A stretch of 64,000 nt of DNA from an uncultured Bacilli bacterium (lineage in GTDB: Bacteria; Bacillota_I; Bacilli_A; RF39; UBA660): positions 157,541 to 221,540 of the forward strand of contig CAKOOS010000001.1 of the NCBI GenBank assembly GCA_934098735.1, written 5' to 3'. Position numbers and translations under genes: made by a program. The first letter of the stretch is position 1; every line of letters begins with the position of its first letter. Shown here one piece after another: positions 15,026-56,464 of the stretch. The notes below the pieces were generated by a model. The model searched no databases, was not told the origin of the DNA, and was given only the letters and a program-made list of their open reading frames with translations.

Positions 15026-16606
15026 GTGAAGAAAGCAATAGATAAAATTAAAAATAATAAAGTTTTATATTTTTTAAGTATATTAATTATTGGTCTTTTG
15101 ATTATATTAGTTTTTAGAATAACTTATGCTTATCTAGCTCCGAGAATATCAAGTGCTTTAGGAAATGTAACTATTGATAGTGATACTGTTGATGATTTAG
15201 ATTTTATTATAGGAGATCCATTAAATATTGATGCAACATCAACTACACTTCCTGAAAATGGAACTAATATTGTTTCTTCTTCAGTTTCAAGTGCATCATT
15301 GACTGCTAATAGTACTAGAAATACTGCTGAGTATAATTATTATTTGTATTTTCAAATTCTTTCCAATAATTTTACTTATTCAAATGGAAGCACTCCAGAA
15401 ATTATTTTAACTATTACAGATCCAAATGGAGATGAAGTAACTAATGTAAGTGGGCTTAATTATGGAACTTTTAGTGGTGTTTCTGGTTTTGATGTGACTA
15501 CTAAAAAAGGACTTTTTACTATTGCTGATAGTTATGCAATTACATCTAATTCAAGTACAAGTGCTACGATTCAAAATTGGACGTTTACTTTAACTTATTT
15601 AAATTTATCTTTTGATCAATCTGCGAATTATGGTCATAATTTGACAACAAAGGTTATAATGTCCCGAAACGAAAGATCAATGGTTTTAGCAAGTTATATT
15701 AAGAAGTTATATACTGGAACTCAAGGAAAAAATTCTATTTATTATCATGATTCTTCACTTGCAAATGGGGCTGGAGATAACTCATATCGCTATGCTGGGA
15801 CAAGTGATAGTGTAAATAATTTTGTTTGTTTTGGATCTAATGCTGATACTTGTCCAAACAATAATTTGTACCGAATTATAGGAGTTTTTGATGATCAAGT
15901 TAAATTAATAAAATATGATTATGCAACAAAAGATATGCTTGGAACGGATGGCGGATATTATTTTTCTGAAGACGATGCTAGCAATGAAGATTTTTATGGA
16001 AAAAGTAAGGGAAATAATTCTTTAAATGATGTGCTTGGCTATCAACGAAAAAATACCACTTCTTGGAGTTCTAGTACATTAAATACAATTAATTTAAATA
16101 CTAATTATGTAAGTTATTTAGGAACAGATTGGGCAAGTAAAATAGCAACCCATACTTGGGTGGTTGGAGGTAATACTTCTAACAATATTTATGATGTTCC
16201 TGTTGCAACCACATACAAAAATGAAATTGTTAATCCGGCATCAAATATTACTTATGATGCTAAAATTGGTCTAATGTATGTTAGCGATTTTGGTTTTGCT
16301 GCATCACAAAATATGTGGACTTCTAATTTAATAAATTATATTATATCAAATAATAGTGATTTAAATTGGATGTATATGGGATTAAACGAAAATACAATTA
16401 CTTTTTATTATGATGAATTAAGACCTTTCTCTTTAACTATTTTGCCAGTAAATAGTACCTTGAAATATGATGAATTTATTAAATTGATTAAGGAGTTAGG
16501 AGGCGATGTTAGTACACCAATACGACCAGTATTTTATTTAAATAATGATGTAAAGCTTGCAAGTGGAACTGGGACAAAACAAGATCCATATCGTCTAGAG
16601 ATTTAA
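15026..16606 (+). CDS. type II membrane-anchored Ser/Thr/Asn-rich surface protein, hypothetical
   Basis: GTG start with AGGGTGA RBS. Single N-terminal TM (VLYFLSILIIGLLIILVF). Long extracytoplasmic S/T/N-rich domain. Confidence 0.5.
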   Translation: MKKAIDKIKNNKVLYFLSILIIGLLIILVFRITYAYLAPRISSALGNVTIDSDTVDDLDFIIGDPLNIDATSTTLPENGTNIVSSSVSSASLTANSTRNTAEYNYYLYFQILSNNFTYSNGSTPEIILTITDPNGDEVTNVSGLNYGTFSGVSGFDVTTKKGLFTIADSYAITSNSSTSATIQNWTFTLTYLNLSFDQSANYGHNLTTKVIMSRNERSMVLASYIKKLYTGTQGKNSIYYHDSSLANGAGDNSYRYAGTSDSVNNFVCFGSNADTCPNNNLYRIIGVFDDQVKLIKYDYATKDMLGTDGGYYFSEDDASNEDFYGKSKGNNSLNDVLGYQRKNTTSWSSSTLNTINLNTNYVSYLGTDWASKIATHTWVVGGNTSNNIYDVPVATTYKNEIVNPASNITYDAKIGLMYVSDFGFAASQNMWTSNLINYIISNNSDLNWMYMGLNENTITFYYDELRPFSLTILPVNSTLKYDEFIKLIKELGGDVSTPIRPVFYLNNDVKLASGTGTKQDPYRLEI

Positions 16607-18505: not shown

Positions 18506-18582
18506 GGACCTCTAGCTCAGTTGGTTAGAGCCCCCGGCTCATAACCGGGTTGTCGAAGGTTCGAGTCCTCCGAGGTCCACCA
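18506..18582 (+). tRNA. tRNA with CAU anticodon, elongator type; resembles Bacillus tRNA-Ile2 (lysidine) more than tRNA-Met
   Basis: Cloverleaf GGACCTC...GAGGTCCACCA. Anticodon loop CUCAUAA. G1-C72 paired, so not an initiator. Encoded CCA. Confidence 0.8.
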
Positions 18583-18589
18583 TTTTTTT

Positions 18590-18674
18590 GCAGGCGTGGC
18601 GGAACTGGCAGACGCGCTAGACTTAGGATCTAGTGGATTAATCCGTGGGGGTTCAAGTCCCTTCGCCTGCACCA
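18590..18674 (+). tRNA. tRNA-Leu (anticodon UAG), class II with long variable arm
   Basis: GCAGGCG acceptor stem. Anticodon loop CUUAGGA. Long variable arm. GGTTCAAGTCC T-arm. Encoded CCA. Confidence 0.85.
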
Positions 18675-30500: not shown

Positions 30501-30570
30501 AAAATAATAGAAAATATAGTATATTCATAGTGTAATTTATTTGATTTAATTAGTAAAATTTAGGATTTTT

Positions 30571-30734
30571 GAAGAGAGCTAGTGAACGGTGAAAACTAGT
30601 AAAGGAATAAATTTGAAGATAGTAAATCGGAAAAATAAACGCATGGTTTGCGATAAAAACAAAAGAGCATAGATTCTATGAATTAAGGTGGTACCGCGGA
30701 AAATGTCCGTCCTTATGATTCATGGGATTTTTAT
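30571..30734 (+). promoter_or_regulatory. T-box riboswitch leader upstream of aspS
   Basis: AGAGAG stem-I element at 30571. Canonical T-box sequence AATTAAGGTGGTACCGCGG at 30681-30699, then a terminator-like hairpin and T-tract. Promoter-like TTGAAA-17-TATATT at 30497-30525. Specifier not assigned; GAU at 30618-30620 is a candidate. Confidence 0.7.
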
Positions 30735-30752: not shown

Positions 30753-32492
30753 ATGAATACAGATTATACTTTAAAAAATATTGGAGAACAAATAAAACTA
30801 GATGGTTGGGTTTCAAAAGTTAGAAATCTTGGCGGAGTAATTTTTATTGACTTAAGAGATAGATCTGGAATAATACAATTAGTAGTAAGACCAGAGTCTT
30901 CATGTTATGATTTAGCTTGTACTTTGGGAAAAGAATATGTAATTGAAGTAGAAGGAGTAGTATCTAAAAGAGAGAGCATTAATAAGAATTTAGCTACTGG
31001 CGAAATAGAAGTAATTGTAGATAAAATATTATTACTTAATAAGTCTTTAGAAATTCCTTTTGAAATAAGTGATACCACAACTGCTTTAGAAGATACAAGA
31101 CTTAAATATCGTTATCTAGATTTAAGAAGAAGTACTTTAGCTAATAATCTTCTTGTAAGACATAAAATAACGATGGCTATTAGAAACTTTTTAGATAAAG
31201 AAAGATTTATTGAAGTTGAAACACCAGTATTGTGTAAGAGTACTCCGGAAGGTGCTAGAGATTATTTAGTTCCATCTAGAGTTAATAAAGGAAAATTTTA
31301 TGCGTTACCTCAATCTCCTCAGTTGTTTAAACAATTGCTGATGGTTGGAGGTATCATGAGATATTTTCAAATAGCTAAATGTTTTCGTGATGAAGACTTA
31401 AGGGCTGATCGTCAACCAGAATTCACACAAGTTGATATAGAAATGAGCTTTGTTCAAGAAGATGATGTAATGAATATGGCAGAAAAATTAATAGCTCATG
31501 TTTTTAAAGAAGTAAAAAATATAGATATAACTTTACCTCTTCAAAGAATGAAATACGATGATGCTATTAAATATTATGGATCTGACAAACCAGATTTAAG
31601 ATACGATATGAAAATCAATGATATAACTAATATATTTAAAGAAACTAGTGTTGAATTTATAGCAAATTCAATTAAAAATGGCGGAATTGTTAATGCAATT
31701 ATAGTTAAAAATAGTGCAGATAAATATTCAAGAAAAGATATAGATAAACTTACACTTTATGTTAAAAATTATAAAGCAAGTGGACTTGCGTTTTTGAAGT
31801 ATGAAGATGAGCTTACTGGATCTATTGCTAAAGTGTTAAGTGATGCTGAAAAAAATTCTATAATTTTTGAACTTAATTTAGAAAAAAATGACTTATTATT
31901 AATTGTTACAGATAAAGAAAAAATTGTAAAAACTGCCCTTGGTGCTTTAAGAATTAAAATAGCTCATGATTTAGGTTTAGTAAATAATAATGAATATAAA
32001 ATGTTATGGGTTACAGATTTTCCATCTTTTGAGTGGAGTGATGAAGAAAATAGATATATGGCTATGCATCATCCGTTTACAGCTCCGAAAGATGAAGATA
32101 TAGATAAACTTCTTACAGATAAAGCCCATTGCTATTCAAAAGCCTATGATATTGTTATAAATGGATATGAAGCTGGTGGCGGATCTATAAGAATTCATGA
32201 TGAAAAAGTTCAAGAAAAGATGTTTGCAGCTTTGGAACTTACACCTAAGCAAGTTAGAGAAAAATTTGGATTCTTTGTTGATGCTTTAAAATATGGGACA
32301 CCTCCCCATGGTGGACTTGCTTTTGGACTTGATCGTTTAACAATGCTTTTACTTGGAACAGATAATATTAGAGATGTTATTGCATTTCCAAAAACAGCTA
32401 GTGCAAGTGATCTAATGAGTGAAGCACCGAATGTTGTAACAGAAAGCCAGTTAAAAGAATTAGGAATAAAAATTGATGTTAAAGAAAACTAA
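30753..32492 (+). CDS. aspS: aspartate--tRNA ligase
   Basis: Class IIb motifs [16 protein letters not shown] and [19 protein letters not shown] before ATG 30753. Confidence 0.9.
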
Positions 32493-33201
32493 ATTTGAAA
32501 ATATATCAGATAAATGTACTTTTTTTCACTTTACTGAAAGATGTAATTTAGAATCAATTTCTAAAAATGGTTTAATTTCTCAGATTGGTAAGCATTCTGT
32601 ATCAATTGAAGAAAATCCTAAAATCTTTTTTGCAGAAGGCTGTGCAAACGTTTTAAAATTAAACGATGTATGGTTAAAATGGCTAATGAATAGAATGTTT
32701 GGCTTTTATAGTCTTAGTAGATCTTTAGAAGGCAATTCTTTAAAATTTAATCTTTTAAAATGGCAAAACGAATATCTTTCTAAAGCTTATAAAACCGATG
32801 AAAAAAAGAAAAAGATTCTTTTTGAAAAAATGTATAAACAAATGGATAAAAAAGTATTCTTGGTTTTAAATTTAACTGTTAATGAAGATTATGATTTAAA
32901 TGATACGGATGAAGTTAAGGCGAGATTTTTTCCAAATAAGAATTCTTTAGATTATCTGTTTTTTAAGGAAATGTATGGAAACTATAGTGATATGGATACA
33001 ATAGTTATGGAAAGATGGAATATGCATACCTTAAAAAATATAAATATAAAACCGCAAAATATTACTATATTGGAGGTTAATGGTAGTGATAATGCATTAG
33101 ATATTTTGATTTTCTTTTATGATAAGTTTAAAGATCAAAAATATGATTTATTAGATGATTTTATAAAATATGCCAAAGAATATAAGATAAATAGCAATTA
33201 G
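32473..33201 (+). CDS. hypothetical protein inserted between aspS and hisS
   Basis: No recognisable motif. Overlaps the aspS 3-prime end by 20 nt. Confidence 0.45.
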
Positions 33202-34524: not shown

Positions 34525-35889
34525 ATGACAATAGAAGAAGTATTAAAAAATGCAGATAAATATGTAAATAAGGAAATAAAGATAAATGGTTGGATTAGAA
34601 ATCATAGATCTCAAAAAGAATTTGGGTTTATAGATTTTAGTGATGGAACATGTTTTAAACACATTCAAGTTGTTTATGATAATTTATTAGATAATTTTTC
34701 TGAAGTTTCTAAATATTTAGTAGGTACTACACTTGAAGTTACTGGATTGTTAGTACCATCAAATGGAAATCAAGATTACGAATTAAAAGCAAGCAAAATT
34801 ATATTGCTTGGAAATTGTCCTGAAGATTACCCAATACAACCAAAAAGACATACAAGAGAATTTTTAAGAGAACAGGCTTATTTAAGACCTAGAACTAATG
34901 TTTTTCAAGCAGTTTTTAAAATTCGTTCGTTAGCAGCACAAGCTATACATCGTTATTTTGGCGATAATGGTTATGTATATGTAAATACTCCAATACTTAC
35001 TGCAAGTGATTGTGAAGGAGCTGGAGAAATGTTTCAGGTTACAACTCTTGATTTAGATAATATGAAGGGAAAAGCTGATTATAGTAAAGATTTTTTTGGA
35101 AAGAAAACTGGACTTACTGTATCTGGACAATTAGAAGCTGAAACTTTTGCAATGGCTTTTTCTAAAGTATATACTTTTGGGCCAACTTTTAGAGCAGAAA
35201 ATTCTAATACAAAGACTCATATGTCTGAATTTTGGATGATTGAGCCAGAAATTGCATTTTGTGATTTAGAAGGTTTAATGGATATTGAAGAGAATATGCT
35301 AAAATATATAATAAAATATTGCTTAGAAAAGGGTAAAGATGAACTAGAGTTTTTAGATAAATTTGTTGAGGCTGGATTATTAGAGAAATTACAAAAATTA
35401 GTTAGTAGTAAATTTACTAGAATTAGTCATGAAGAAGTTATTAAAATATTAAAAGAAGCTCCAGTTGATTTTGAATTTACGCCCGAATATGGTGAAGATA
35501 TTGCTAAAGAACATGAAAAATATATAACAGAATATTTTAATGGTCCTGTATTTATAACAAACTGGCCAAAAGATATCAAAGCATTTTATATGAAACAAAA
35601 TGATGATGGTAAAACAGTAGCTGCTGTTGATCTTGAAATACCTGGAGTTGGTGAACTAATGGGTGGATCTCAAAGAGAAGAATCATACGAAAAATTGGTA
35701 GCTAGAATGAAAGAACTTGATATGGATGAATCAGAATTATACTGGTATGTTAATTTAAGAAAATATGGTTCTTGCATTCATTCTGGATTTGGTTTGGGAT
35801 TTGAAAGATTGATTATGTATATAACAGGAATGGAAAATATAAGGGATGTTATTCCTTACTATAGAACACCTGGTAACTGTGAATTTTAA
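34525..35889 (+). CDS. asnS: asparagine--tRNA ligase
   Basis: N-terminal OB fold. Class IIb FRAENSNTKTHMSEFWMIEPE and GSCIHSGFGLGFERL. Confidence 0.9.
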   Translation: MTIEEVLKNADKYVNKEIKINGWIRNHRSQKEFGFIDFSDGTCFKHIQVVYDNLLDNFSEVSKYLVGTTLEVTGLLVPSNGNQDYELKASKIILLGNCPEDYPIQPKRHTREFLREQAYLRPRTNVFQAVFKIRSLAAQAIHRYFGDNGYVYVNTPILTASDCEGAGEMFQVTTLDLDNMKGKADYSKDFFGKKTGLTVSGQLEAETFAMAFSKVYTFGPTFRAENSNTKTHMSEFWMIEPEIAFCDLEGLMDIEENMLKYIIKYCLEKGKDELEFLDKFVEAGLLEKLQKLVSSKFTRISHEEVIKILKEAPVDFEFTPEYGEDIAKEHEKYITEYFNGPVFITNWPKDIKAFYMKQNDDGKTVAAVDLEIPGVGELMGGSQREESYEKLVARMKELDMDESELYWYVNLRKYGSCIHSGFGLGFERLIMYITGMENIRDVIPYYRTPGNCEF

Positions 35890-36803: not shown

Positions 36804-38260
36804 TGACAGAATTAAATATTGTTAAATTACATGAAATGTTAAAAAATGGAGAAATTACTAGTAATGAATTAATAAAAGAATCTTTAGAAAAATCTCATGA
36901 AATACAAAAAAAATGCAATGCTTTTGTAACAATAATAGATAATGCTAAAGAAAAAGAAATAACTGATGATTTGCTTTCTGGTATACCTTATGGAATTAAA
37001 GACAATTATTCTACGAAAGATATTTTATCTACTGGATCATCAAATACTTTAAAAGATTATGTACCTTTTTTTGATGCTACTGCTGTTAGGAATTTAAAAA
37101 ATCATGGAGCTGTAGCTGTAAATAAAACAGCTTTAGATGAATTTGGAATGGGAGGAACTGGAACTACTGCTCATACTGGCGTAATAAAAAATCCTTGGGA
37201 TACTGCAAGGATGTGTGCTGGATCATCTTCTGGTTCTGCTGCTGCTGTTGCAAGTGGTGTTTATCCCTTTGCTCTTGGAAGTGATACTGGTGATTCAATT
37301 CGTAAACCGGCAGCCTTTTGCGGAATTGTTGGCTATAAACCTACGTATGGTATGATTTCAAGATATGGCCTTTTTCCTTTTGCGTCAAGTTTGGATCATT
37401 GTGGTGTGCTAACTAGATGTGTCGAAGATGCTGCGATTGTAGTAGATGCTATGAAAGGAATTGATGAAAACGATCAAACTAGCTGGGATTCTAGTGATAT
37501 TAATCTTTATAAAAGCTTAGATAAAAATGTTAAGGGTAAAAAAGTTTTTTACATTAAAGAAATAACTGATATTAATAATTATCCGAATGCTTCTGATGAG
37601 TTAAAAAAACATTTAAATATTTTTTATGAAACTTTGGAAAAATTAAAAAGTATAGGAGTTACAGTAGAGGAAGTATCAATTGATAAAAATTTATTAAAAA
37701 CAATACCAAGTGTTTATGTTTGTTTGTCTTGTGCAGAAGCTACTAGTAATATGTCGAACTTAACTGGAATTATTTTTGGCCCACGTGGTGAAGGTGATAA
37801 TGTTATGGAAATGATGAAAGATCATAGAACTAAAGGTTTTTCACCTCTTATAAAAAGAAGATTTGTTATTGGATCTTATGTACTTCAAAAAGAAAATCAA
37901 GAAAGATACTTTTTAAATGCTGCTAGAGTTAGAAGACTTATTGTAGATAAATTTAAAGAATTATTTAATGAGTATGATGCTTTTATATTACCTGTTTCAA
38001 CTGGGGTTGCTCCGTATTTAGATGGATCTAAAGATCAGTTAGAAATAAGTGATACTGATTTATTAGAAGAACATTTACAAATTGGTAATTTTGGTGGTTT
38101 TCCATCCATAACTTTGCCAAATGGTTTTATTGATAATTTGCCAGTTGGAGTAAATATAACAGGAAATTGTTTTAATGATGTTACAGTTTTAAATTTAGCT
38201 TATGCTTTGGAAAGTGAAATGAAGTATAAAAACATTATTGCTGGAGGTAAATATGAATAA
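36803..38260 (+). CDS. gatA: Asp/Glu-tRNA amidotransferase subunit A (amidase)
   Basis: Amidase signature GSSSGSAAAVASG and the catalytic Ser-cisSer-Lys pattern. Confidence 0.9.
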   Translation: MTELNIVKLHEMLKNGEITSNELIKESLEKSHEIQKKCNAFVTIIDNAKEKEITDDLLSGIPYGIKDNYSTKDILSTGSSNTLKDYVPFFDATAVRNLKNHGAVAVNKTALDEFGMGGTGTTAHTGVIKNPWDTARMCAGSSSGSAAAVASGVYPFALGSDTGDSIRKPAAFCGIVGYKPTYGMISRYGLFPFASSLDHCGVLTRCVEDAAIVVDAMKGIDENDQTSWDSSDINLYKSLDKNVKGKKVFYIKEITDINNYPNASDELKKHLNIFYETLEKLKSIGVTVEEVSIDKNLLKTIPSVYVCLSCAEATSNMSNLTGIIFGPRGEGDNVMEMMKDHRTKGFSPLIKRRFVIGSYVLQKENQERYFLNAARVRRLIVDKFKELFNEYDAFILPVSTGVAPYLDGSKDQLEISDTDLLEEHLQIGNFGGFPSITLPNGFIDNLPVGVNITGNCFNDVTVLNLAYALESEMKYKNIIAGGKYE

Positions 38261-39683
38261 ATATAAAGCAGTTATTGGCTTAGAGATGCATTGTGAAATT
38301 AAAAGTAATTCTAAAGTTTTCTCAAGTGCAAGAAATTCTTATAATGAACTTGCTAATGACAATGTTAGACCCCTTGATATGGCATTTCCTGGTACTTTAC
38401 CTGTTATTAATAAAGAATGTGTTAGAAAAGCTTTGATGATGTCACTTGTACTTGATTGCACGCAACCTGAATATATGTATTTTGATCGAAAAAATTATTA
38501 TTATCCAGATTTACCAAAGGGATATCAAATTACTCAAATGCATGATCCGGTTGGTGTAAATGGAAAAATTATGATTGAATGTGATGGATATTCTAAAGAA
38601 GTTTTAATTCATGATATTCATTTAGAAGAAGATTCTGCATCTTTAGATCATTATTCAGATGTGTCTTTAATTGATTATAATAGAGCTGGTGTTCCTTTAC
38701 TTGAACTTGTTACAGAACCTTGTTTAAATTCAGCAGCTGAAGCTGTAGCATTTCTAGAAAATATACGAAGAATTTACCAATATTGTGATATTTCTGAAGC
38801 TGATACGAAAAAAGGCCAAATACGTTGTGATGTAAATGTTTCTATAATGGATTATGATAGTGATATTTTGGGAACTAAAGTAGAAATTAAAAATGTTAAT
38901 TCATTTGCTAATGTTTCCGAAGCAATAGAGTATGAAATTAAAAGACAAAGTGAATTAAAAGCTGCTGGTCGTTATGATGAAGTTGTTCAAGAAACACGTC
39001 GTTTTGATGAAGAAACTGGAACAACAATTCACATGAGAAACAAAGTTGATGCAATAGATTATAAATATTTTGTAGAACCAAATATTCCTAAATATAAAAT
39101 TAATAAAGAATGGTTAGAAGAAATAAGAAAAACTATACCAATGCTTCCTAGAGAAAGAAAATATAAATATATTAATGAATATAATTTAAGCGAATATGAT
39201 ACAAATATAATAATTAAAGAAAAGGATTATGCTGATTATTTTGAAGAATGCCTAAAACTAGGTATTGATAAAAAACTAGCTGCAAACTGGCTTACAGTAC
39301 AAATTATCGCTTATTTAAATAAAAATGATATAACTTTAGAAGAATTTTTTCTAAAACCAAACTTGTTAAAACAAATTTTAGAGCCTTTAGAAAAAAATAT
39401 TATTTCTAGTAAACAAGCTAAAGACATTTTCTTAAAGGCACTTGAAGAAGAAAAAGAACCTAGAACGTATATAAATGAAGATAATTTACAAATGTCTGAT
39501 AAAGAAAAGCTAAATGATATAATTGATAATATAATAAATAGAAATGAAAAACAAGTTGAAGAATATAGAAATGGAAAAAGTAATTTATTTGACTTTTTTG
39601 TAGGCCAAGTAATGAAAGAAACAAAAGGCAAAGCTAATCCAGTTTTAACAAAAGAAATATTAAGAAACAAGCTTGATAATTAA
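38253..39683 (+). CDS. gatB: Asp/Glu-tRNA amidotransferase subunit B
   Basis: N-terminal YKAVIGLEMHCEIKSNSKVFS. GGAGGT RBS. The start overlaps the gatA stop. Confidence 0.9.
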   Translation: MNKYKAVIGLEMHCEIKSNSKVFSSARNSYNELANDNVRPLDMAFPGTLPVINKECVRKALMMSLVLDCTQPEYMYFDRKNYYYPDLPKGYQITQMHDPVGVNGKIMIECDGYSKEVLIHDIHLEEDSASLDHYSDVSLIDYNRAGVPLLELVTEPCLNSAAEAVAFLENIRRIYQYCDISEADTKKGQIRCDVNVSIMDYDSDILGTKVEIKNVNSFANVSEAIEYEIKRQSELKAAGRYDEVVQETRRFDEETGTTIHMRNKVDAIDYKYFVEPNIPKYKINKEWLEEIRKTIPMLPRERKYKYINEYNLSEYDTNIIIKEKDYADYFEECLKLGIDKKLAANWLTVQIIAYLNKNDITLEEFFLKPNLLKQILEPLEKNIISSKQAKDIFLKALEEEKEPRTYINEDNLQMSDKEKLNDIIDNIINRNEKQVEEYRNGKSNLFDFFVGQVMKETKGKANPVLTKEILRNKLDN

Positions 39684-39718
39684 GCTTGTTTTTTGTATAC
39701 TTATGATAGGTGATTTTG

Positions 39719-40171
39719 ATGAAAAAAAACATATTTTTAGCATTTGCTGTTATAGTCGTAGTTGTTGCTGCTGGCCTTTTAGGTCTTGCTGTGGGTGGCT
39801 TTTTTAATGAGCCAAAAGTAGTTGCTAATGGTATTATTATTTCTAAAAAGCCTTCGACAGATGATAAAAAACTTATATCTTCTTATGAAGAATATGATGA
39901 ACTTTTAAAAAAATATGGAGCAAATGATGTGGTTCTTTTAACTAATAACGATTTTTCAAATATGGATTATATAGTAGACTTTATAAATTATGAAAAAAAT
40001 TTGAATATTAAAAATATTTCTTTAGATATAACTGATGATGGTGTTAATATAACTTATGAAGTTAATAAAAAGCCGGGATCTAATAAAAAATATTTAATGT
40101 ATTTTATTCCGGTTGAAAAAGGGATGCTTAGTGAAGTAAAAGTTAATTCTCAAAAATTTGATGTAAAATAA
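39719..40171 (+). CDS. hypothetical TM-anchored protein with a ~120-aa extracytoplasmic domain
   Basis: AGGTGA RBS. Single N-terminal TM. 16-nt gap to the HerA-like gene. Confidence 0.4.
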   Translation: MKKNIFLAFAVIVVVVAAGLLGLAVGGFFNEPKVVANGIIISKKPSTDDKKLISSYEEYDELLKKYGANDVVLLTNNDFSNMDYIVDFINYEKNLNIKNISLDITDDGVNITYEVNKKPGSNKKYLMYFIPVEKGMLSEVKVNSQKFDVK

Positions 40172-40226
40172 CTTTTACTTTTTTTTTATGTTTGATATAA
40201 TTAATATGATAATAAGGAGTGGTAAC

Positions 40227-42098
40227 ATGTTTGGAAAGATAGTTTATATAGGAGAAAGTGAAGCTCATGTTGAAAATTTACAAAAAGATATGAGTAGTGC
40301 AGACTTAATGAATATGAATGTTATATTTGAAGAACAGAATCAAAGAATACTAGGTGAAGTACAGGAACTTGGAAACGATATAATAAAAATAAGATTTTTA
40401 GGGGAATATATTAATGGAAAGTATGTAAATGGGGTTTTAAGAAAGCCACTTCTTACTTCTAAAATAAGAATGATAAATTCTGAAGAACTTACAGAATTAG
40501 TTGGAGTATATGATGCGTCTAGTTTTGTTTTAGGAGAAAGTGCGATTTATAAAGGCTTTATGATTAATCCAAATATTAATAGTTTATTTTCTAACCATTT
40601 AGCTATATTTGGTAACTCTGGATCTGGTAAGTCATGTGGAGTAGCAAGAATAGTTCAAAATATCTTTTCTAGTAAATTTCAAGTTCAATATAATGCTAAT
40701 ATTTTTATTTTTGATTCTTTTGGAGAATACAAAAATGCTTTTGGCAAATTAAATGAAATAAATAATAATTATTCTTATAAGTTTATAACAACTAATCCAA
40801 CTGATCCATCCGATAAGCTATTACAAATTCCAGTTGGACTTCTTACCTTAGATGATTTTGCTTTATTATTACAAGCTGCAAATCATGCACAACTTCCTAT
40901 TATAGAAAATACAATTAAATTAGCTAAAATATTTTCAACAAATAGTGAAGAAGCTAATAATTACAAAAATCATTTAATAGCTAAAGCTTTACTTGCTGTT
41001 TTATTTAGTAATGAAACTGTATCAAGTAAAAAAAATGAAATATTTACAATTATAGAAGTTTGTAATACTCCAGAATTTAATTTTGATTCGGTTATACCTG
41101 GTTTAGGTTATACAAGAACCTTTAGTGAATGCTTTGAAATCGATTCAAATGGTAACTTTGGAGAATCTGTTTTAATAACAAATTACATTTTAAGTAAAAT
41201 AAATGATAATTTAGATAGCATTAAGGCTCCGGAAGAAGCAAGTTATTCTTTAGTAGATTTTGCTCGAGCAATGGAGTTTACCCTTATTAGTGAAGGCTTT
41301 CAACATAATCAAAATTTGCATGATGATGCTGTTATATTAAGAGTCAGACTTAATTCAATTATAAATAGTAAAATTGGTAATTATTTTACTAAAGAGTATG
41401 TTCCTATTTCTAAATATATTGCTTCACTTTTAGATAATAATGGTAAAAAAGCACAGATTATTAATATTAATTTGGAAGATGTTGATGATATTTTTGCTAA
41501 AGTATTTGTTAAAATATATTCTAGACTAATATTTGATTTTTCTAAATCTAGTGTCAAAAGAGCTCAAGTACCTTTTCATCTTTTTCTTGAAGAAGCTCAC
41601 CGTTATATTCAAAAAGACAATGATACATTCTTGCTTGGTTACAACATATTTGATCGAATTGCTAAAGAAGGACGTAAATATGGCGTTATTTTAGATATAA
41701 TTAGTCAAAGACCTGTAGAAATAAGCGATACTGTTATTGCTCAGTGCAATAATTTCTTGATTTTTAAAATGACACACCCACTTGATATTAAATATATCGG
41801 GGAAATGCTTCCAAATATTTCTCAAGATATTCTTGATAAACAAAAAGTATTACAACCTGGTACTTGTGTATGTTTTGGTGGGGCTTTCAAAATACCTATG
41901 ATTGTTAAAATGCAAATGCCTAATCCAATGCCTTATTCAAGCAACTGTGATGTTTCATCTTGCTGGAAAATGGGAGAACCTAGTGTAAGCAATAATCCAG
42001 TAGATACATTTGCAAATGCTACTATAAATACTAGCACAGAAGCTCCAAATCTATTTGCAGAAGATTTTAAAATAAGTGATGTAGAACATATGATATAA
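40227..42098 (+). CDS. HerA/FtsK-superfamily (DUF87-like) ATPase with HAS-barrel-like N-terminal domain
   Basis: AAGGAGTGG RBS before ATG 40227. Walker A GNSGSGKS. Walker B hhhhEEAH (FHLFLEEAHRY). Arg-finger-like ISQRP. A beta-rich region of ~100 aa precedes the P-loop. Confidence 0.6.
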   Translation: MFGKIVYIGESEAHVENLQKDMSSADLMNMNVIFEEQNQRILGEVQELGNDIIKIRFLGEYINGKYVNGVLRKPLLTSKIRMINSEELTELVGVYDASSFVLGESAIYKGFMINPNINSLFSNHLAIFGNSGSGKSCGVARIVQNIFSSKFQVQYNANIFIFDSFGEYKNAFGKLNEINNNYSYKFITTNPTDPSDKLLQIPVGLLTLDDFALLLQAANHAQLPIIENTIKLAKIFSTNSEEANNYKNHLIAKALLAVLFSNETVSSKKNEIFTIIEVCNTPEFNFDSVIPGLGYTRTFSECFEIDSNGNFGESVLITNYILSKINDNLDSIKAPEEASYSLVDFARAMEFTLISEGFQHNQNLHDDAVILRVRLNSIINSKIGNYFTKEYVPISKYIASLLDNNGKKAQIININLEDVDDIFAKVFVKIYSRLIFDFSKSSVKRAQVPFHLFLEEAHRYIQKDNDTFLLGYNIFDRIAKEGRKYGVILDIISQRPVEISDTVIAQCNNFLIFKMTHPLDIKYIGEMLPNISQDILDKQKVLQPGTCVCFGGAFKIPMIVKMQMPNPMPYSSNCDVSSCWKMGEPSVSNNPVDTFANATINTSTEAPNLFAEDFKISDVEHMI

Positions 42099-42194
42099 TT
42101 TACTTTAAGTAAATTCAGAGTCTAAAATTTGATTTCTAGAGTATATTATGATATAATAGTATCCATATTAATTAAGGAGAGATTATATTAATAT

Positions 42195-42995
42195 ATGATA
42201 AAATTTTTTAAAACCAATAAAATAATTACTATATTATTTATTGGCGGTATAATTGGAGTAATTTTGTTGGTTATTCCAAAGAATAAAAAGGAAAGAAACT
42301 TTCAAAGAATAAATATAGAGAGTGTTGTTAAAGTTGATGCTCAAAAAGAATTAAGTGATGAAGAAAAACTAACTATTTTATTAGAGAATAATAAGAATAA
42401 TATAGATTTTTATAGTAATACTTTTCAAATTAGTAGTGAAATACTTACTAATAAAATTAAGGAAAATTATTTAAATTTGAATTTGCTAGATAGTGAAAAT
42501 AATTTTGATCGAATTTTACTAGACTATTTACTCATTCTTGAAAGTGATGAAAAAGAATTATTTGATAGAACTAAAATGCCTTGTAATTATAGTAAAGAGT
42601 ATATAGTTGCTTTAATTAATTATTTTAGTAATTTATATGACAATGTTGATTATAGTATAGCTGCTGGTATTGCTCAGGTAGAATCTGGCTTTACTGCACA
42701 ATATATGCTTTATAATAATAATGTATTTGGAGGTATGGCTGGTGGTCGTTTAATCAGCTATCGAAATATTGAATATGGTATATTAAATTATATTAAACTT
42801 CTTAGTGAAGGATATTTTAGTAAAGGTTTAAATACGATTGAAAGTATTGGTAGCGTTTATAATCCAACATATAATGAATATGGAGTTAAAGTAGCTAAAC
42901 CAAGTTGGGTAAATAATGTTACTAAAGCATCTTTAGAATATTTAAACAGAGAATATGTTGACATTAATGTATTAAATTCTCTAAAAAGTTATTAG
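42195..42995 (+). CDS. TM-anchored peptidoglycan hydrolase, glucosaminidase (FlgJ-C/LYZ2-like) domain
   Basis: N-terminal TM helix. IAAGIAQVESGFTAQYMLYNNNVFGG resembles the conserved ExSG motif of the mannosyl-glycoprotein endo-beta-N-acetylglucosaminidase domain. Confidence 0.5.
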   Translation: MIKFFKTNKIITILFIGGIIGVILLVIPKNKKERNFQRINIESVVKVDAQKELSDEEKLTILLENNKNNIDFYSNTFQISSEILTNKIKENYLNLNLLDSENNFDRILLDYLLILESDEKELFDRTKMPCNYSKEYIVALINYFSNLYDNVDYSIAAGIAQVESGFTAQYMLYNNNVFGGMAGGRLISYRNIEYGILNYIKLLSEGYFSKGLNTIESIGSVYNPTYNEYGVKVAKPSWVNNVTKASLEYLNREYVDINVLNSLKSY

Positions 42996-43218
42996 AAGGT
43001 ATTGGCAAATATAATCTTATTTGTTATAATTAAGTTGCCTAGAAGGAATCTATGTCTATTTAAAACCGACTAGATATGATATACGGGAATCTAATTGAAT
43101 TATGGTGTAGAAGACTTATCCATTAAGTGAATAAGGATCCTAAAGTAGTTCATGTGATGCCCACCTCGCGAGAGCGGGTTTTTATCAAAGCAAGATTTCT
43201 TCTGGGTTTTATTATGGA

Positions 43219-43899
43219 GTGATTTTAATGTTTGAAAGGTTAGAAAGATTGGTTGGAAAAGAAGCAGTTGAAAAAATAAATCAAAAGAATATTTTATTAG
43301 TTGGAGTAGGTGGTGTCGGAGGTACAGTTTTAGAAGCTTTGGTTCGATCTGGTATTAAAAACATAACTATTGCAGATGGTGATGTTTTTGATGAATCAAA
43401 TTTGAATAGACAAATATTATCTACTCAGGAAGTAATTGGTCAAAAAAAGGTTGATGTGGCAAAAAAAAGAGTTCTTGATATTAATAGAGATGCTAATATT
43501 CAAACAATAGATTATAATTTAACTGAAGAAAGTATAAGTAACTTAGATAAAAATTATGATTTTATTATCGACGCTTGTGATGATGTTAAAGCTAAATTAA
43601 AATTAATGAAATTTGCAGAATTTAATAATATTTCCATAATTTGTTCAATGGGAACTGGAAAAAGACTAAATCCTAGTATGGTTAAAATTAGTACGTTAAA
43701 TAAAACTTATAATGATCCGCTTTCTAAAAAAATTAGATATGAAGCTAAAAAAATGGGTATTAATACTAATATACCCGTTGTATTTTCTGAAGAACTTCCT
43801 TACAATAGTGATAATGTTGTTGCTTCAAGTATATTTGTTCCTAGTTGTGCAGCTTTAAATATAGCTTATTATGTTATAAAAAAAATAATTAAACCTTGA
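43219..43899 (+). CDS. ThiF/MoeB/HesA-family E1-like protein (TcdA/YrvM-like tRNA t6A dehydratase)
   Basis: Rossmann motif VGVGGVGG and the DGDVFDESNLNRQ motif. Confidence 0.75.
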   Translation: MILMFERLERLVGKEAVEKINQKNILLVGVGGVGGTVLEALVRSGIKNITIADGDVFDESNLNRQILSTQEVIGQKKVDVAKKRVLDINRDANIQTIDYNLTEESISNLDKNYDFIIDACDDVKAKLKLMKFAEFNNISIICSMGTGKRLNPSMVKISTLNKTYNDPLSKKIRYEAKKMGINTNIPVVFSEELPYNSDNVVASSIFVPSCAALNIAYYVIKKIIKP

Positions 43900-54135: not shown

Positions 54136-54891
54136 TTAATATGGAAATAAAAATGATATTAAATTGCTAAATTTATCTATATGAAAATACACAATAAATA
54201 AAGCTCCGACTAGAAATGGTCCATAAGGGAATTCATGCCTATTTTTTAAATGCAAACTTGCAAAAGCATAAGGAAGAGCTAAGAAACTTGAAAGAACTAA
54301 GGCAACTAATGCTAACTTTATATCAAGACATAAACCAATTATAAAACATAGTTTTATATCACCTCCACCTAATGATTCCTTTTTCAAAATAAATGATCCA
54401 ATTTCTTCAATTAAAAGCATAATAAGAAACATTGATATGCCTGATAAAATACTAAAAATACCAGTTTTAAATCCACTATATATTATTTTTATTATTATGA
54501 TTAAAACACCAGATATAATTAGAGATGAATCTAATATTATCATATATTTAAAATCACTTACGAAGATAATAACCATTAATGAAACAATAATGAGAGATAT
54601 TAAAAATTCTTCACCAAAAGGAAAATATAAATAAGATAATAAAAATAAAAACCCTGTGATTAATTCTACCCAAAAATGTTCACTATTTATTTTACTTTTA
54701 CAATTAGAACATTTACCTTTTTGGATTATATACGAAATTAAAGGAATTAAATTATACCACTTTAATTCCTTTTTACATGTATCACATCTGCTTCGAGAAA
54801 ATATAATATCTTCGTTTAATGGAAGTCTTGTTCCTACTACTAAATAAAATGAACCTAAAATTGTTCCTAATATAAACATAAATATTGCCAT
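54136..54891 (-). CDS. type IV prepilin peptidase (A24 family, PilD/ComC-like)
   Basis: N-terminal zinc-binding CxxC...CxxC (CDTCKKELKWYNLIPLISYIIQKGKCSNCKS). Polytopic membrane region with conserved Asp residues. Confidence 0.8.
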   Translation of the reverse strand: MAIFMFILGTILGSFYLVVGTRLPLNEDIIFSRSRCDTCKKELKWYNLIPLISYIIQKGKCSNCKSKINSEHFWVELITGFLFLLSYLYFPFGEEFLISLIIVSLMVIIFVSDFKYMIILDSSLIISGVLIIIIKIIYSGFKTGIFSILSGISMFLIMLLIEEIGSFILKKESLGGGDIKLCFIIGLCLDIKLALVALVLSSFLALPYAFASLHLKNRHEFPYGPFLVGALFIVYFHIDKFSNLISFLFPY

Positions 54892-54898
54892 ACTTCAC

Positions 54899-56464
54899 CT
54901 ATCCATTTTGTATTTGGGCGTACATATCAAACATTGGTACTATAACAGCTATAATAATTGCACCTACAACAAGAGCTAAAATAGATATCATAATAGGTTC
55001 TATAAATGATTTTAAACTATTGATAATATTTTTATGTAATAGTTGATAATATTCACTAACCTTTTGCATCATGTTTGCTAAATCTCCAGTTGATTCGCCA
55101 GTGACAATCATATAATATGCAACATCAGGTACTGCCCAATGATCCTTAAATGCTTCACTAATTTTTTCCCCTTTTACTATATTATTAATTGTTTTATATA
55201 AAATTGCTTTGTAAATTTCGTTATTTGTTATTCGGCTTAAGATATCCATACTATCAGTAATAAATACATTATTTCTTAATAATGAAGCAAATGTCTTAGA
55301 AAATATTGTAAGTTCATTATAAATGATAACATTTTTAACTATTGGTAAATGCATAAGAAAAATTTGCATACTTGTTCTAAACGCTTTGACGGTTTTATAG
55401 AGAACAACAATTATTAAAATTATTAAGATTATTACTAATAAAAATGTTAACCAGTTATTTTTCAAAAAAGTACTTATATCAATAACAAGTTTTGTCATAC
55501 CTGTTATTTTTGTACCATTTGCATCGTAAATTTCTATAAATTTTGGAACTACATATAGCAAAATAAAAGTTATTACGCCAATTGAAAAAACAGTTATTAT
55601 AGCTGGGTAAGTCATGGCACTTACCATTTGTTTATGAGTTTCATTTATTTCCGTATAATATGCAGCCATATCATCAAGAGTCTCAACTAAAGTACCACTA
55701 GCTTCAGCTGCTTTAATCATATTTACAAGCAATGCAGGAAACATATTTCCTTGTTTTTCTAAAGCTTTAGAAAATGATTCTCCTAAAGTTAGTTCATAAG
55801 AAATAGCTTTAAATGCCGTAGTTCGAGATTTATTTCCTTTCATTTGAGTTGTAAGAATTTTTATTGATTCATTTAATGTAAGACCTGCCTTAATATAAGT
55901 TGATAACTGAGTTAACCAAAATATAAGATCTTTTGTTGACATCTTTTTTCCAAAAAAACTTGTATCTTTATACAATAAATCAATCATTGGAGAGGTTTTT
56001 ATAGAGTAAACAATATATCCTTCATTTAATAAATAAGAATTTATATCTAATTTACTTAAACCATTCATAGTACCAGTTATTATTTTCCCAGTTGTATCTT
56101 TTACTTTATAATAATATACATGTGGTTCTTTAGTTCGTGTTGCCCCAGAAGTTTGTAAATCAATAAGAAGCATTTTTCTTTCTTCTTCTAATTTAGCTAG
56201 TAATTTGGGACTGTATTTATAAACTTTTTCTTTTTTTGGCTTTTTCTTTGTTCTTTCATATATTTTTTCTTCATCTGCCATGAAGGCCTGCTTAGTTGCT
56301 TCATAAGTTCTGCTTACACGATAACTTGTTCCATTGTATAAGTCAGCCCAAAAATCAAACCCTAAAAACTTTATTCCAACTAAAGCATAGGTAACTATAT
56401 TATAGAGAATAACAAATGGACTTTTTAATATGTCTATGAATTTTTTGGAATTAGTTGCTTCCAT
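54899..56464 (-). CDS. type II secretion system F-family platform protein (PilC/GspF-like)
   Basis: Two T2SSF-domain repeats, each with 3 TM segments. Extended N-terminus, so the true start may be internal. Confidence 0.75.
   Translation of the reverse strand: MEATNSKKFIDILKSPFVILYNIVTYALVGIKFLGFDFWADLYNGTSYRVSRTYEATKQAFMADEEKIYERTKKKPKKEKVYKYSPKLLAKLEEERKMLLIDLQTSGATRTKEPHVYYYKVKDTTGKIITGTMNGLSKLDINSYLLNEGYIVYSIKTSPMIDLLYKDTSFFGKKMSTKDLIFWLTQLSTYIKAGLTLNESIKILTTQMKGNKSRTTAFKAISYELTLGESFSKALEKQGNMFPALLVNMIKAAEASGTLVETLDDMAAYYTEINETHKQMVSAMTYPAIITVFSIGVITFILLYVVPKFIEIYDANGTKITGMTKLVIDISTFLKNNWLTFLLVIILIILIIVVLYKTVKAFRTSMQIFLMHLPIVKNVIIYNELTIFSKTFASLLRNNVFITDSMDILSRITNNEIYKAILYKTINNIVKGEKISEAFKDHWAVPDVAYYMIVTGESTGDLANMMQKVSEYYQLLHKNIINSLKSFIEPIMISILALVVGAIIIAVIVPMFDMYAQIQNG

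Follow-up and report, generated by a model that had tools for sequence, protein, structure and literature searches.

At present, bacterial HerA proteins are understood almost entirely as the motor or sensor in an antiphage pair (Sir2-HerA or HerA-DUF4297) or in HerA-NurA repair operons. Here, we describe a HerA-family ATPase that lacks an adjoining partner gene of any of these kinds. It is encoded in a stretch of 64,000 nucleotides (nt), referred to as the window, from an uncultured Bacilli bacterium (GTDB lineage RF39, UBA660; GenBank assembly GCA_934098735.1, contig CAKOOS010000001.1, positions 157,541 to 221,540). The gene lies between gatB and a ThiF/TcdA-like gene, preceded by a gene for a membrane protein of 153 amino acids (aa) and followed by one for a 266-aa protein resembling GH73 glucosaminidases. 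An original prediction, made from the letters of the DNA, had read these three genes as an insertion after gatCAB and as a possible envelope-spanning translocation or DNA-handling module, or else a defence-type system. Our analysis suggests that the ATPase is probably a stand-alone housekeeping HerA, with a presumed role as a DNA translocase. Its gene forms part of the core genome in a large radiation of gut Bacilli, all uncultured and with small, low-GC genomes. That a large clade without partners is found there, under constraint equal to that on subunits of the tRNA amidotransferase, suggests that a HerA can work alone in housekeeping.

Family, fold and the search for a partner

The ATPase is a true member of the HerA family, with a HAS barrel, a RecA-like core, a helical bundle and intact motifs. 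It scores above threshold against the Pfam DUF87/HerA central domain (PF01935; 65.5 bits, cut-off 23.2), an assignment that is also precomputed in all of its homologues, and it matches the PADLOC HerA model PDLC04102 at 9.5e-105. The Walker A motif GNSGSGKS, the Walker B motif LFLEEAH and the ISQRP segment all stand where the original prediction had placed them (Table 1), and an EGRKYG motif is present as well. Over 18 sequences that share 30-100% identity, residues G129, G132, G134, K135, A457, G482, K484 and G486 do not vary and R483 hardly does; the nine closer orphan sequences all share E455, E456, R483, Q494 and R495. An AlphaFold2 model based on the same 18-sequence alignment (pLDDT 82.3, pTM 0.80) has strands across residues 2-82, bearing out the predicted HerA layout with a HAS-barrel-like N-terminus, followed by a RecA-like alpha/beta core, helices (the bundle) across residues 208-400 and a tail that is disordered from residue 580. 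All 50 top Foldseek matches of this model in the PDB are HerA chains, the best being 8yhx (TM-score of 0.70 when normalised to the query and 0.77 when normalised to the target).

The C-terminal tails of these proteins vary widely. Beyond the conserved Trp580, they measure 0-157 aa in loci L001-L086 and ~350 aa in P0226 and P0232. Their sequences are of low complexity, rich in N, P, T and S, and share no common motif (the P0227 tail was included in the comparison). A conserved C-terminal docking peptide, at which a few orthologues had hinted, was dropped as a candidate because the tails across 81 loci showed this spread of lengths and no motif in common.

Among characterized proteins, those of immune systems come closest. 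The best sequence match in the PDB is 9c1m (8.5e-43), the HerA of a HerA-DUF4297 system (bioRxiv 10.1101/2024.10.24.620088), followed in order by 8xau, 8ziq, the Sulfolobus HerA 4d2i and then the Sir2-HerA entries 8wiv, 8yho and 8j4u. The Walker motifs and the C-terminal half align well with the HerAs of HerA-DUF4297 (9c1m, 8xau, 8ziq) and the fold matches, but the genomic context is another one, with no DUF4297/Cap4-like gene among the annotated neighbours of the orphan. Sir2-HerA systems (Nezha), such as SaSir2-HerA (8yho/8yhx) and the Enterococcus and Listeria pairs, have the same N-terminal beta-barrel, RecA-like ATPase and helical bundle, with 31-37% identity over almost the full length. 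They differ from the orphan in carrying an overlapping SIR2 gene upstream and in residing on plasmids or in defence islands, whereas the orphan occupies a fixed site in the core genome and is conserved at a housekeeping level. The archaeal and Deinococcus HerA-NurA systems (4d2i, 9x1l) share with the orphan the fold with its HAS barrel, a chromosomal location and a plausible action on DNA. They are more distant (2.6e-29 and 5e-16), and the orphan belongs to a bacterial Bacilli lineage and has no NurA, Mre11 or Rad50 gene beside it. The ATPase also matches the HerA equivalogs of NCBIfam, those for antiphage as well as those for archaeal repair proteins, at 1e-47 to 2e-23, far below their cut-offs: the antiphage models NF042943 and NF042944 give 149.6 and 162.9 bits against thresholds of 800 and 850, and the archaeal repair model NF040937 matches at 3.6e-36.

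The usual partners are missing from the neighbourhood, as the original prediction had noted. Pfam, NCBIfam and PADLOC found no nuclease, SIR2 or DUF4297 gene adjoining the ATPase in the window, and the Pfam lists of L001-L006 and L088-L092 hold no DUF4297 or Cap4-like nuclease. NurA was not found within 8-10 kb of HerA in the annotated loci. A tblastn search with two SIR2 partner queries over 176 loci (2.0 Mb) detected SIR2 only in the outgroup loci L093 and L094. The more distant relatives P0238 and P0240 (33-37% identical) do have overlapping SIR2_2 genes upstream, in islands with restriction-modification, PLD nuclease and toxin genes, and the best plasmid matches (31-33%) are SIR2 plus ATP-binding pairs on Enterococcus and Listeria plasmids. 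In an indicative neighbour-joining tree of 82 sequences, built without bootstrap support, all partner-less HerAs form one clade, whose sister holds the Bacillota Sir2-linked HerAs.

In the alignment, the Sir2-linked P0238 and P0240 carry three insertions in the region of the N-terminal barrel that the orphans lack; P0239 and P0250 share insertions in this domain, on contigs too short or uninformative for their context to be read. In Staphylococcus aureus, Sir2 docks on the N-terminal barrel of HerA and on its protruding beta3-beta4 hairpin (PMC11514289). The insertions are absent exactly where Sir2 docks, which suggests that the orphans lost, or never had, the docking surface. The orphan clade would therefore offer a natural comparison for partner-specific features of immune HerAs, with the insertions in the N-terminal barrel as a candidate. 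A search of the literature found no account of a partner-less core-genome HerA clade, and neither FtsK, SpoIIIE nor HerA is mentioned in a paper about the genomes of RFN20, RF39 and ML615J-28.

Conservation of the orphan HerA in the core genome

Close homologues of the ATPase number in the thousands in gut metagenomes and metagenome-assembled genomes (MAGs). A profile search recovered at least 8000 clusters at 90% identity (E<=1e-50), all from MAGs, which carry only the names 'ATP-binding protein', 'DUF87 domain-containing protein' and 'helicase HerA domain-containing protein'. Among 1.84 billion representatives, 206 clusters fell below 1e-30, ~18 of them full-length relatives with 30-54% identity. 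With each GTDB species represented by one genome, 481 species were found to encode a HerA relative, and neighbourhoods were read for the best 80. These are 54-88% identical to the protein in the window and all come from MAGs of uncultured Bacilli (named as uncultured Bacilli, 'Tenericutes', CAG:460, CAG:605, Onthocola, Ventrenecus and Coprovivens). Together, 81 species-level loci and 80 metagenomic loci of deeper subclades make up the 161 orphan-HerA loci over which co-occurrence is counted below.

The position of the gene is conserved as well. Contigs with an 88-100% identical ATPase keep the order aspS-...-asnS-gatCAB, with or without a 150-aa gene, then HerA-264-aa gene-ThiF-gpsA-mgsA-xerC. 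The backbone gatCAB ... HerA ... 6S RNA-tcdA-gpsA-mgsA-xerC is kept in roughly half of the species-level loci, as judged from open reading frames (ORFs) and BLAST, across dozens of species. The genes directly beside HerA vary by subclade, and one copy of the orphan HerA was seen per locus. One or both kinds of neighbour found in the window (GH73-like and 153-aa) are missing from L056, L022, L016 and L036. In L056, the order is gatB-HerA-gpsA without any extra gene, so that HerA is flanked by housekeeping genes alone, and in L028 and L046 HerA is directly followed by the 6S RNA and ThiF genes.

Rates were compared as the mean difference in identity relative to HerA in the same loci. MgsA (+2.3 points) and GatA (+0.1) are closest to HerA, followed by GatB (-4.8) and AsnRS (-5.2), while XerC (-13), ThiF (-20), the GH73-like protein (-31) and the 153-aa protein (-46) are less conserved. 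Judged by these identities, the orphan HerA is as constrained as GatA and MgsA, at a housekeeping level. Its identity also correlates with that of MgsA and XerC (r=0.82-0.83), and this tracking indicates vertical descent. No close HerA homologue was found in phages or plasmids, with nothing comparable in phages. An insertion or mobile element was considered for the block and rejected, as its GC content (0.21-0.31) and GC skew are the same as those of its flanks, no meaningful repeats flank it, phages and plasmids lack a close homologue, and HerA occupies the same place in dozens of species. The block is therefore not the 'insertion' after gatCAB of the original prediction but part of a conserved core synteny.

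This conservation also bears on a possible role in immunity, in which the ATPase would be a derivative of Sir2-HerA in a constitutive anti-phage defence system, with an effector that is unlinked or swapped among variable, membrane-anchored neighbours (abortive infection). Such a role would fit the closest characterized relatives, found in Sir2-HerA and DUF4297-HerA systems, the strong matches to the PADLOC HerA model, and the variable slots beside the gene, which are also a trait of defence islands. Defence genes, however, are typically patchy and fast-evolving, while the orphan keeps a fixed housekeeping position across species with a HerA 54-88% identical to that of the window and equals GatA and MgsA in conservation. 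It also reaches 163 and 150 bits with the antiphage equivalogs, far from the required 850 and 800, and lacks the N-domain insertions of its Sir2-linked relatives. Furthermore, no SIR2 homologue lies near any orphan in the 176 loci searched, the annotated neighbours include no DUF4297 or nuclease gene, and in some genomes every neighbour is a housekeeping gene. We therefore regard a defence role as quite unlikely.

Genomic contexts and a possible cellular role

Relatives from deeper subclades place the gene in other chromosomal contexts. The most divergent members of the species-level set (54-58% identical) have the order ftsY-TM-ylxM-HerA-TM141-ackA, where TM denotes genes for small transmembrane proteins, and P0226 at L088 (51-52% identical to the ATPase in the window) has ftsY-x-ylxM-HerA, with recA at most 8 kb from HerA. 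At ~38-41% identity, P0376 at L089 (cluster representative P0231) lies in asnS-PP2C-HerA-sepF-divIVA-...-ileS. P0378 at L092 (~40%; cluster representative P0233) follows rpmH-rnpA-yidC-jag in the divergent arrangement HerA-dnaA-dnaN-...-recF-gyrB-gyrA, and P0234 at L090 (38%) adjoins an LtaS-like gene.

The deeper set of 80 metagenomic loci, related to the P0231 subclade and 45-79% identical to P0231, extends these observations. SepF is encoded directly downstream of HerA on the same strand in 25 of the 75 loci that have a downstream gene, usually with DivIVA next; the gap between HerA and SepF is 36-125 nt in 24 loci and 605 nt in one. HerA-sepF-divIVA is the most consistent linkage seen for the family, and the genes upstream vary within this subclade (PP2C, lipoprotein-like, EssC and peptidase-like genes). 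The sepF-divIVA subclade is found among L095-L131, with examples in L095 (7800 onward) and L089 (10099-10988). Other subclades have yqeG-yqeH-HerA (13 loci), a divergent group of pgsA, RodZ-like and GpsB-like genes (3 loci), or hisS or LtaS downstream. All of these deeper contexts are housekeeping contexts, and several are related to division or replication.

At least 12 loci, spread over different subclades, have genes of the type VII secretion system (T7SS) directly beside the orphan HerA, coding for an EssC-like ATPase of ~1530 aa, YukD-like and WXG100/LXG-like proteins. These loci are L054, L059 and L063 (upstream of HerA), L060 and L067, and L097, L101, L107, L109, L124, L131 and L133. 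The adjacency may be a coincidence of variable slots or a real link. In L026 and L036, a TM-anchored GH25 muramidase (Pfam 3.7e-29; e.g. L036 3709-4908) directly follows HerA, so that a different wall hydrolase fills the slot that the GH73-like gene takes in the window. In our reading, the T7SS, GH25 and small transmembrane neighbours fill variable slots next to a stable gene.

Like other HerAs, the orphan would form a hexameric ring, in which ATP hydrolysis at the subunit interfaces would drive DNA through the central pore or remodel it there. The process served would be a housekeeping one, rather than immunity or envelope transport, and the likeliest candidates are division-coupled chromosome handling, in a role like that of FtsK, or the processing of DNA ends. 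Division-coupled handling is preferred because of the contexts with sepF-divIVA, the gpsB-like gene, dnaA and xerC/mgsA. The orphan shares with FtsK, SpoIIIE and SftA the ring-ATPase superfamily and, in its deeper subclades, division contexts, and xerC lies ~4 kb from HerA in the block of the window. It has a HAS barrel and none of the FtsK-type TM anchor, linker and gamma (KOPS-reading) domain, so that FtsK serves as a functional analogy only. If a link to division or segregation were true, it would revive the old proposal of HerA as a cellular chromosome pump, now in bacteria. The clade itself is of interest both for HerA-based immunity and for the cell biology of reduced Bacilli.

End processing could take the form of double-strand break repair, in which the ATPase, as a helicase like that of HerA-NurA in archaea or Deinococcus, would work with an unlinked nuclease and make up for AddAB/RecBCD lost from reduced genomes. 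Membership in the HerA family and the matches to archaeal repair proteins (NF040937 and 4d2i, as above) point in this direction, as do mgsA and xerC in the syntenic block, recA close to HerA in L088, and mutS and uvrC in the window. These linked genes are generic housekeeping genes, however, and the ATPase is closer to immune than to repair HerAs. Where HerA-NurA has been characterized, in archaeal and Deinococcus systems, the two genes are operonic, but no NurA-like gene adjoins HerA in any annotated locus. Repair of this kind is thus a possibility that we hold to be unlikely. Among the roles considered, we would rank division-coupled handling first. Processing of DNA ends together with a nuclease encoded elsewhere comes next, ahead of a defence role with a variable or unlinked effector, and an envelope module is a distant fourth.

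Several points weigh against a stand-alone housekeeping translocase. Its cellular role is deduced from genomic context and conservation, and all hosts of the orphan HerA are uncultured. The adjacency to sepF and divIVA could reflect an inherited gene order instead of functional coupling, and the subclade of the window itself does not have it. The nearest characterized relatives are all immune ATPases, and the tree that separates the orphans from them is, as said, indicative. Some immune HerAs have no helicase activity, or only nicking activity (PMC13434337), so the label 'DNA translocase' is not guaranteed for the orphan. Finally, the immediate neighbours often belong to the envelope or are secreted (GH73-like, GH25, small transmembrane proteins and T7SS genes), which could hint at an envelope-linked role.

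A more far-reaching scenario concerns the origin of the clade. The orphan could be an immune-type HerA that was domesticated, or the cellular ancestor of the immune version, and could act as an essential, division-coupled chromosome motor in place of FtsK/SftA in Bacilli with reduced genomes. This would explain both the housekeeping-level conservation and the tight linkage, varying by subclade, to sepF-divIVA, gpsB-like genes, dnaA or the xerC block; we consider it speculative and, on balance, unlikely.

Neighbouring genes and other features of the locus

Coordinates of the locus are collected in Table 1. All three ORFs (153 aa, ATPase and 266 aa) are intact and co-oriented between gatB and the ThiF-family gene, as the original prediction had described. 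The ATPase starts almost certainly at ATG 40227, because an AAGGAG lies 8 nt upstream and every aligned homologue begins there with MFGK, MFDR or MLGR. The protein is therefore 623 aa long, which replaces the 624 aa given originally as well as a length of 636 aa, and the gap to the 153-aa gene measures 55 nt in place of 16 nt; this gap holds hairpin, T8 and promoter-like elements.

Table 1. Features of the HerA locus and of the surrounding window, with the 6S RNA genes of related loci. Positions refer to the window unless a locus is named.
Feature	Position (nt)	Strand	Remarks
tRNA gene	18506-18579	+
tRNA gene	18590-18671	+
T-box leader	30537-30717	+	5' of aspS; 96.6 bits
242-aa conserved protein	32473-33201	+	between aspS and hisS; 20-nt overlap with the end of aspS
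gatB	38238-39683		5' flank of the three-ORF block
153-aa single-pass membrane protein	39710-40171	+	150 aa if the start is ATG 39719
TM helix of the 153-aa protein	39728-39805		residues 7-32
AT-rich hairpin and T8 run	40134-40180	+	after the stop of the 153-aa gene
Promoter-like site, TTTACT-16-TATAAT	40174-40201	+	TG extension; 5' of the ATPase gene; consensus match only
HerA-family ATPase	40227-42098	+	623 aa; ORF open from 40188
HAS beta-barrel	40227-40472		residues 1-82
Walker A, GNSGSGKS	40611-40634		residues 129-136
Walker B, LFLEEAH	41580-41600		residues 452-458
ISQRP	41700-41714		residues 492-496
Disordered, non-conserved C-terminal tail			residues 580-623
Promoter-like site, TTGATT-17-TATAAT	42129-42157	+	TG extension; 5' of the GH73-like gene; consensus match only
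GH73-like membrane-anchored protein	42195-42995	+	266 aa
TM helix of the 266-aa protein	42222-42275		residues 10-27
VESG	42678-42689		E163
NIEYG	42765-42779		E193
6S RNA promoter	43002-43030		11/12 consensus positions and TG
6S RNA gene	43033-43212	+	Rfam RF00013; 52.9 bits (gathering score 46.4)
6S RNA intrinsic terminator	43165-43178
ThiF/TcdA-like gene	43219-43899		3' flank of the block
6S RNA gene, L001	12851-13033
6S RNA gene, L007	10754-10936
6S RNA gene, L011	10754-10937
6S RNA gene, L013	10842-11022
6S RNA gene, L018	10628-10811
6S RNA gene, L028	9870-10056
6S RNA gene, L046	9999-10180

The 266-aa protein, which the original prediction called a TM-anchored glucosaminidase, has the TM anchor and a GH73-like fold, although its Pfam Glucosaminidase match remains below the gathering score (15.6 against 30.2 bits, E=0.027). 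A helical region without assigned function (residues 55-120) follows the TM helix, and a lysozyme-like domain occupies residues ~134-247. A profile of 27 sequences matches a single PDB entry, 8yxk, the glucosaminidase domain of the Clostridioides difficile endolysin Ecd09610 (3.3e-7). Foldseek compares the AlphaFold2 model (pLDDT 85.8) with 8yxk, 7pj3 (LytB), 4pi9 (AtlE), 3fi7 (Auto) and 4qdn, with TM0633 also among the matches; the GH73 matches have probabilities of 0.8-1.0 (0.9-1.0 for the lysozyme-like fold of Ecd09610, LytB, AtlE and Auto) but E-values of 1.6e-3 or weaker and a query TM-score of ~0.33, which is low because only the C-terminal half of the protein aligns. Both E163 and E193 stay unchanged throughout 27 homologues, which parallels the GH73 enzymes with their conserved Glu in (V/A)ESG and a second invariant Glu 30 residues on. 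In place of the cell-wall-binding repeats of those enzymes, the 266-aa protein has its N-terminal TM anchor and the helical domain. 'GH73-like wall hydrolase' thus appears to be a fair description, with a putative hydrolase activity. Other wall genes in the window are murF, mltG and one for a MurJ-like flippase.

The GH73-like gene adjoins HerA in 14 of the 81 species-level loci and in none of the 80 metagenomic ones (14/161); it follows HerA in the closest subclade and precedes it in another (L027, L028, L038 and L042). Its homologues are ~50% identical where the HerAs are 84-88% identical. Neighbours of ~250-300 aa in other lineages were considered as diverged GH73-like proteins and rejected, since an iterated hidden Markov model added none beyond the 15 obvious members; over the 80 further loci it recruited nothing. 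In the metagenome contig L005, whose ATPase is 100% identical to that of the window, an 8-nt indel interrupts the GH73-like gene, and asnS is split too (L005 11969-12777 and 4299-5663, corresponding to 42195-42995 and 34525-35889 in the window). These splits may represent strain-level pseudogenisation or an assembly error.

The 153-aa protein has one N-terminal TM helix, in agreement with the small single-pass membrane protein originally described, followed by an ectodomain of ~115 aa, and it has zero matches in Pfam, NCBIfam and PADLOC. Its gene adjoins HerA in 6 of the 81 species-level loci and in none of the 80 metagenomic loci (6/161), where the homologues share 28-41% identity. Small transmembrane neighbours in other lineages (clusters C17, C16, C43, C51, C12 and C19) were rejected as analogues, with hhalign probabilities of at most 6%. 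Both genes are thus neighbours of the ATPase and not conserved partners, the 153-aa gene being a lineage-restricted one.

These counts bear directly on the idea that the three genes form a minimal envelope-spanning module for translocation or DNA handling, inserted after gatCAB, with the 153-aa protein as anchor, HerA as motor and the glucosaminidase as opener of the wall. The genes are adjacent and co-oriented, another wall hydrolase (the GH25 muramidase) takes a place after HerA in two loci, small transmembrane proteins flank HerA in the ftsY-ylxM subclade, and T7SS genes stand beside it in at least 12 loci. Against this, the GH73-like gene occurs on either side of HerA and both neighbours adjoin it in a small share of the 161 loci, such that a comparison of gene neighbourhoods, proposed with the original prediction, found the three genes largely failing to occur together in relatives. 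Four loci (L056, L022, L016 and L036) lack one or both neighbour kinds, the small transmembrane neighbours are not homologous to one another, and the near-identical strain has a frameshifted GH73-like gene. The neighbours also evolve faster than HerA by 31-46 identity points. A kinship of the ATPase with type IV secretion systems, for which the original prediction had proposed HMM searches, found no backing: Pfam gives no match to VirB4/AAA_10, VirD4/TrwB or TraG, the matches to FtsK_SpoIIIE (PF01580; 14.5 bits against 24, below threshold) and TraB (NF041214; E=0.051 over 27 residues) cover the P-loop only, no relaxase or VirB6-like gene lies near, and the ATPase has no TM helix.

Local signals further separate the genes. 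A terminator-like hairpin and promoter-like sites lie between them, including the TG-extended -10 element (TGATATAAT) upstream of the 266-aa gene, which the original prediction had recognised as a -10-like element of its own, and the 153-aa gene likewise has a promoter-like site upstream. In this AT-rich genome, 38 promoter-like sites were found where 27.6 are expected, and they are consensus matches only; if anything, the separate sites argue against an obligatory operon. We therefore consider a three-gene envelope module highly improbable, and see in it an accident of adjacency beside a stable core gene with variable slots. The 153-aa and GH73-like genes are independent, fast-evolving envelope genes in the variable slots that flank the stable core HerA.

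Between the block and the ThiF-family gene lies a 6S RNA gene, which the original prediction overlooked when it named the thiF-like gene, correctly as to its family, as the next feature. The 6S RNA gene lies directly 5' of the ThiF/TcdA-like gene in seven of the eight related species checked, and is a conserved landmark of the syntenic block, outside any HerA system.

Elsewhere in the window, the T-box leader and the two tRNA genes are ordinary. The 242-aa protein encoded between aspS and hisS has counterparts of 44-49% identity in related species and no Pfam match recorded in L001 or L005. Reading of the translations by eye also revealed genes that resemble those for competence or type IV pili, coding for a PilC/ComGB-like platform protein and a prepilin peptidase-like protein, as well as large secreted proteins whose hydrophobic N-terminus is pilin-like and which have a C-terminal motif in common (...DPY/F.L/I); these observations refer to 54136-56464 (- strand) and 15026-16606 (+ strand). 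Relatives of the pilin-like secreted proteins (cluster C13; L011, L044 and others) fill the variable slot beside HerA in some species.

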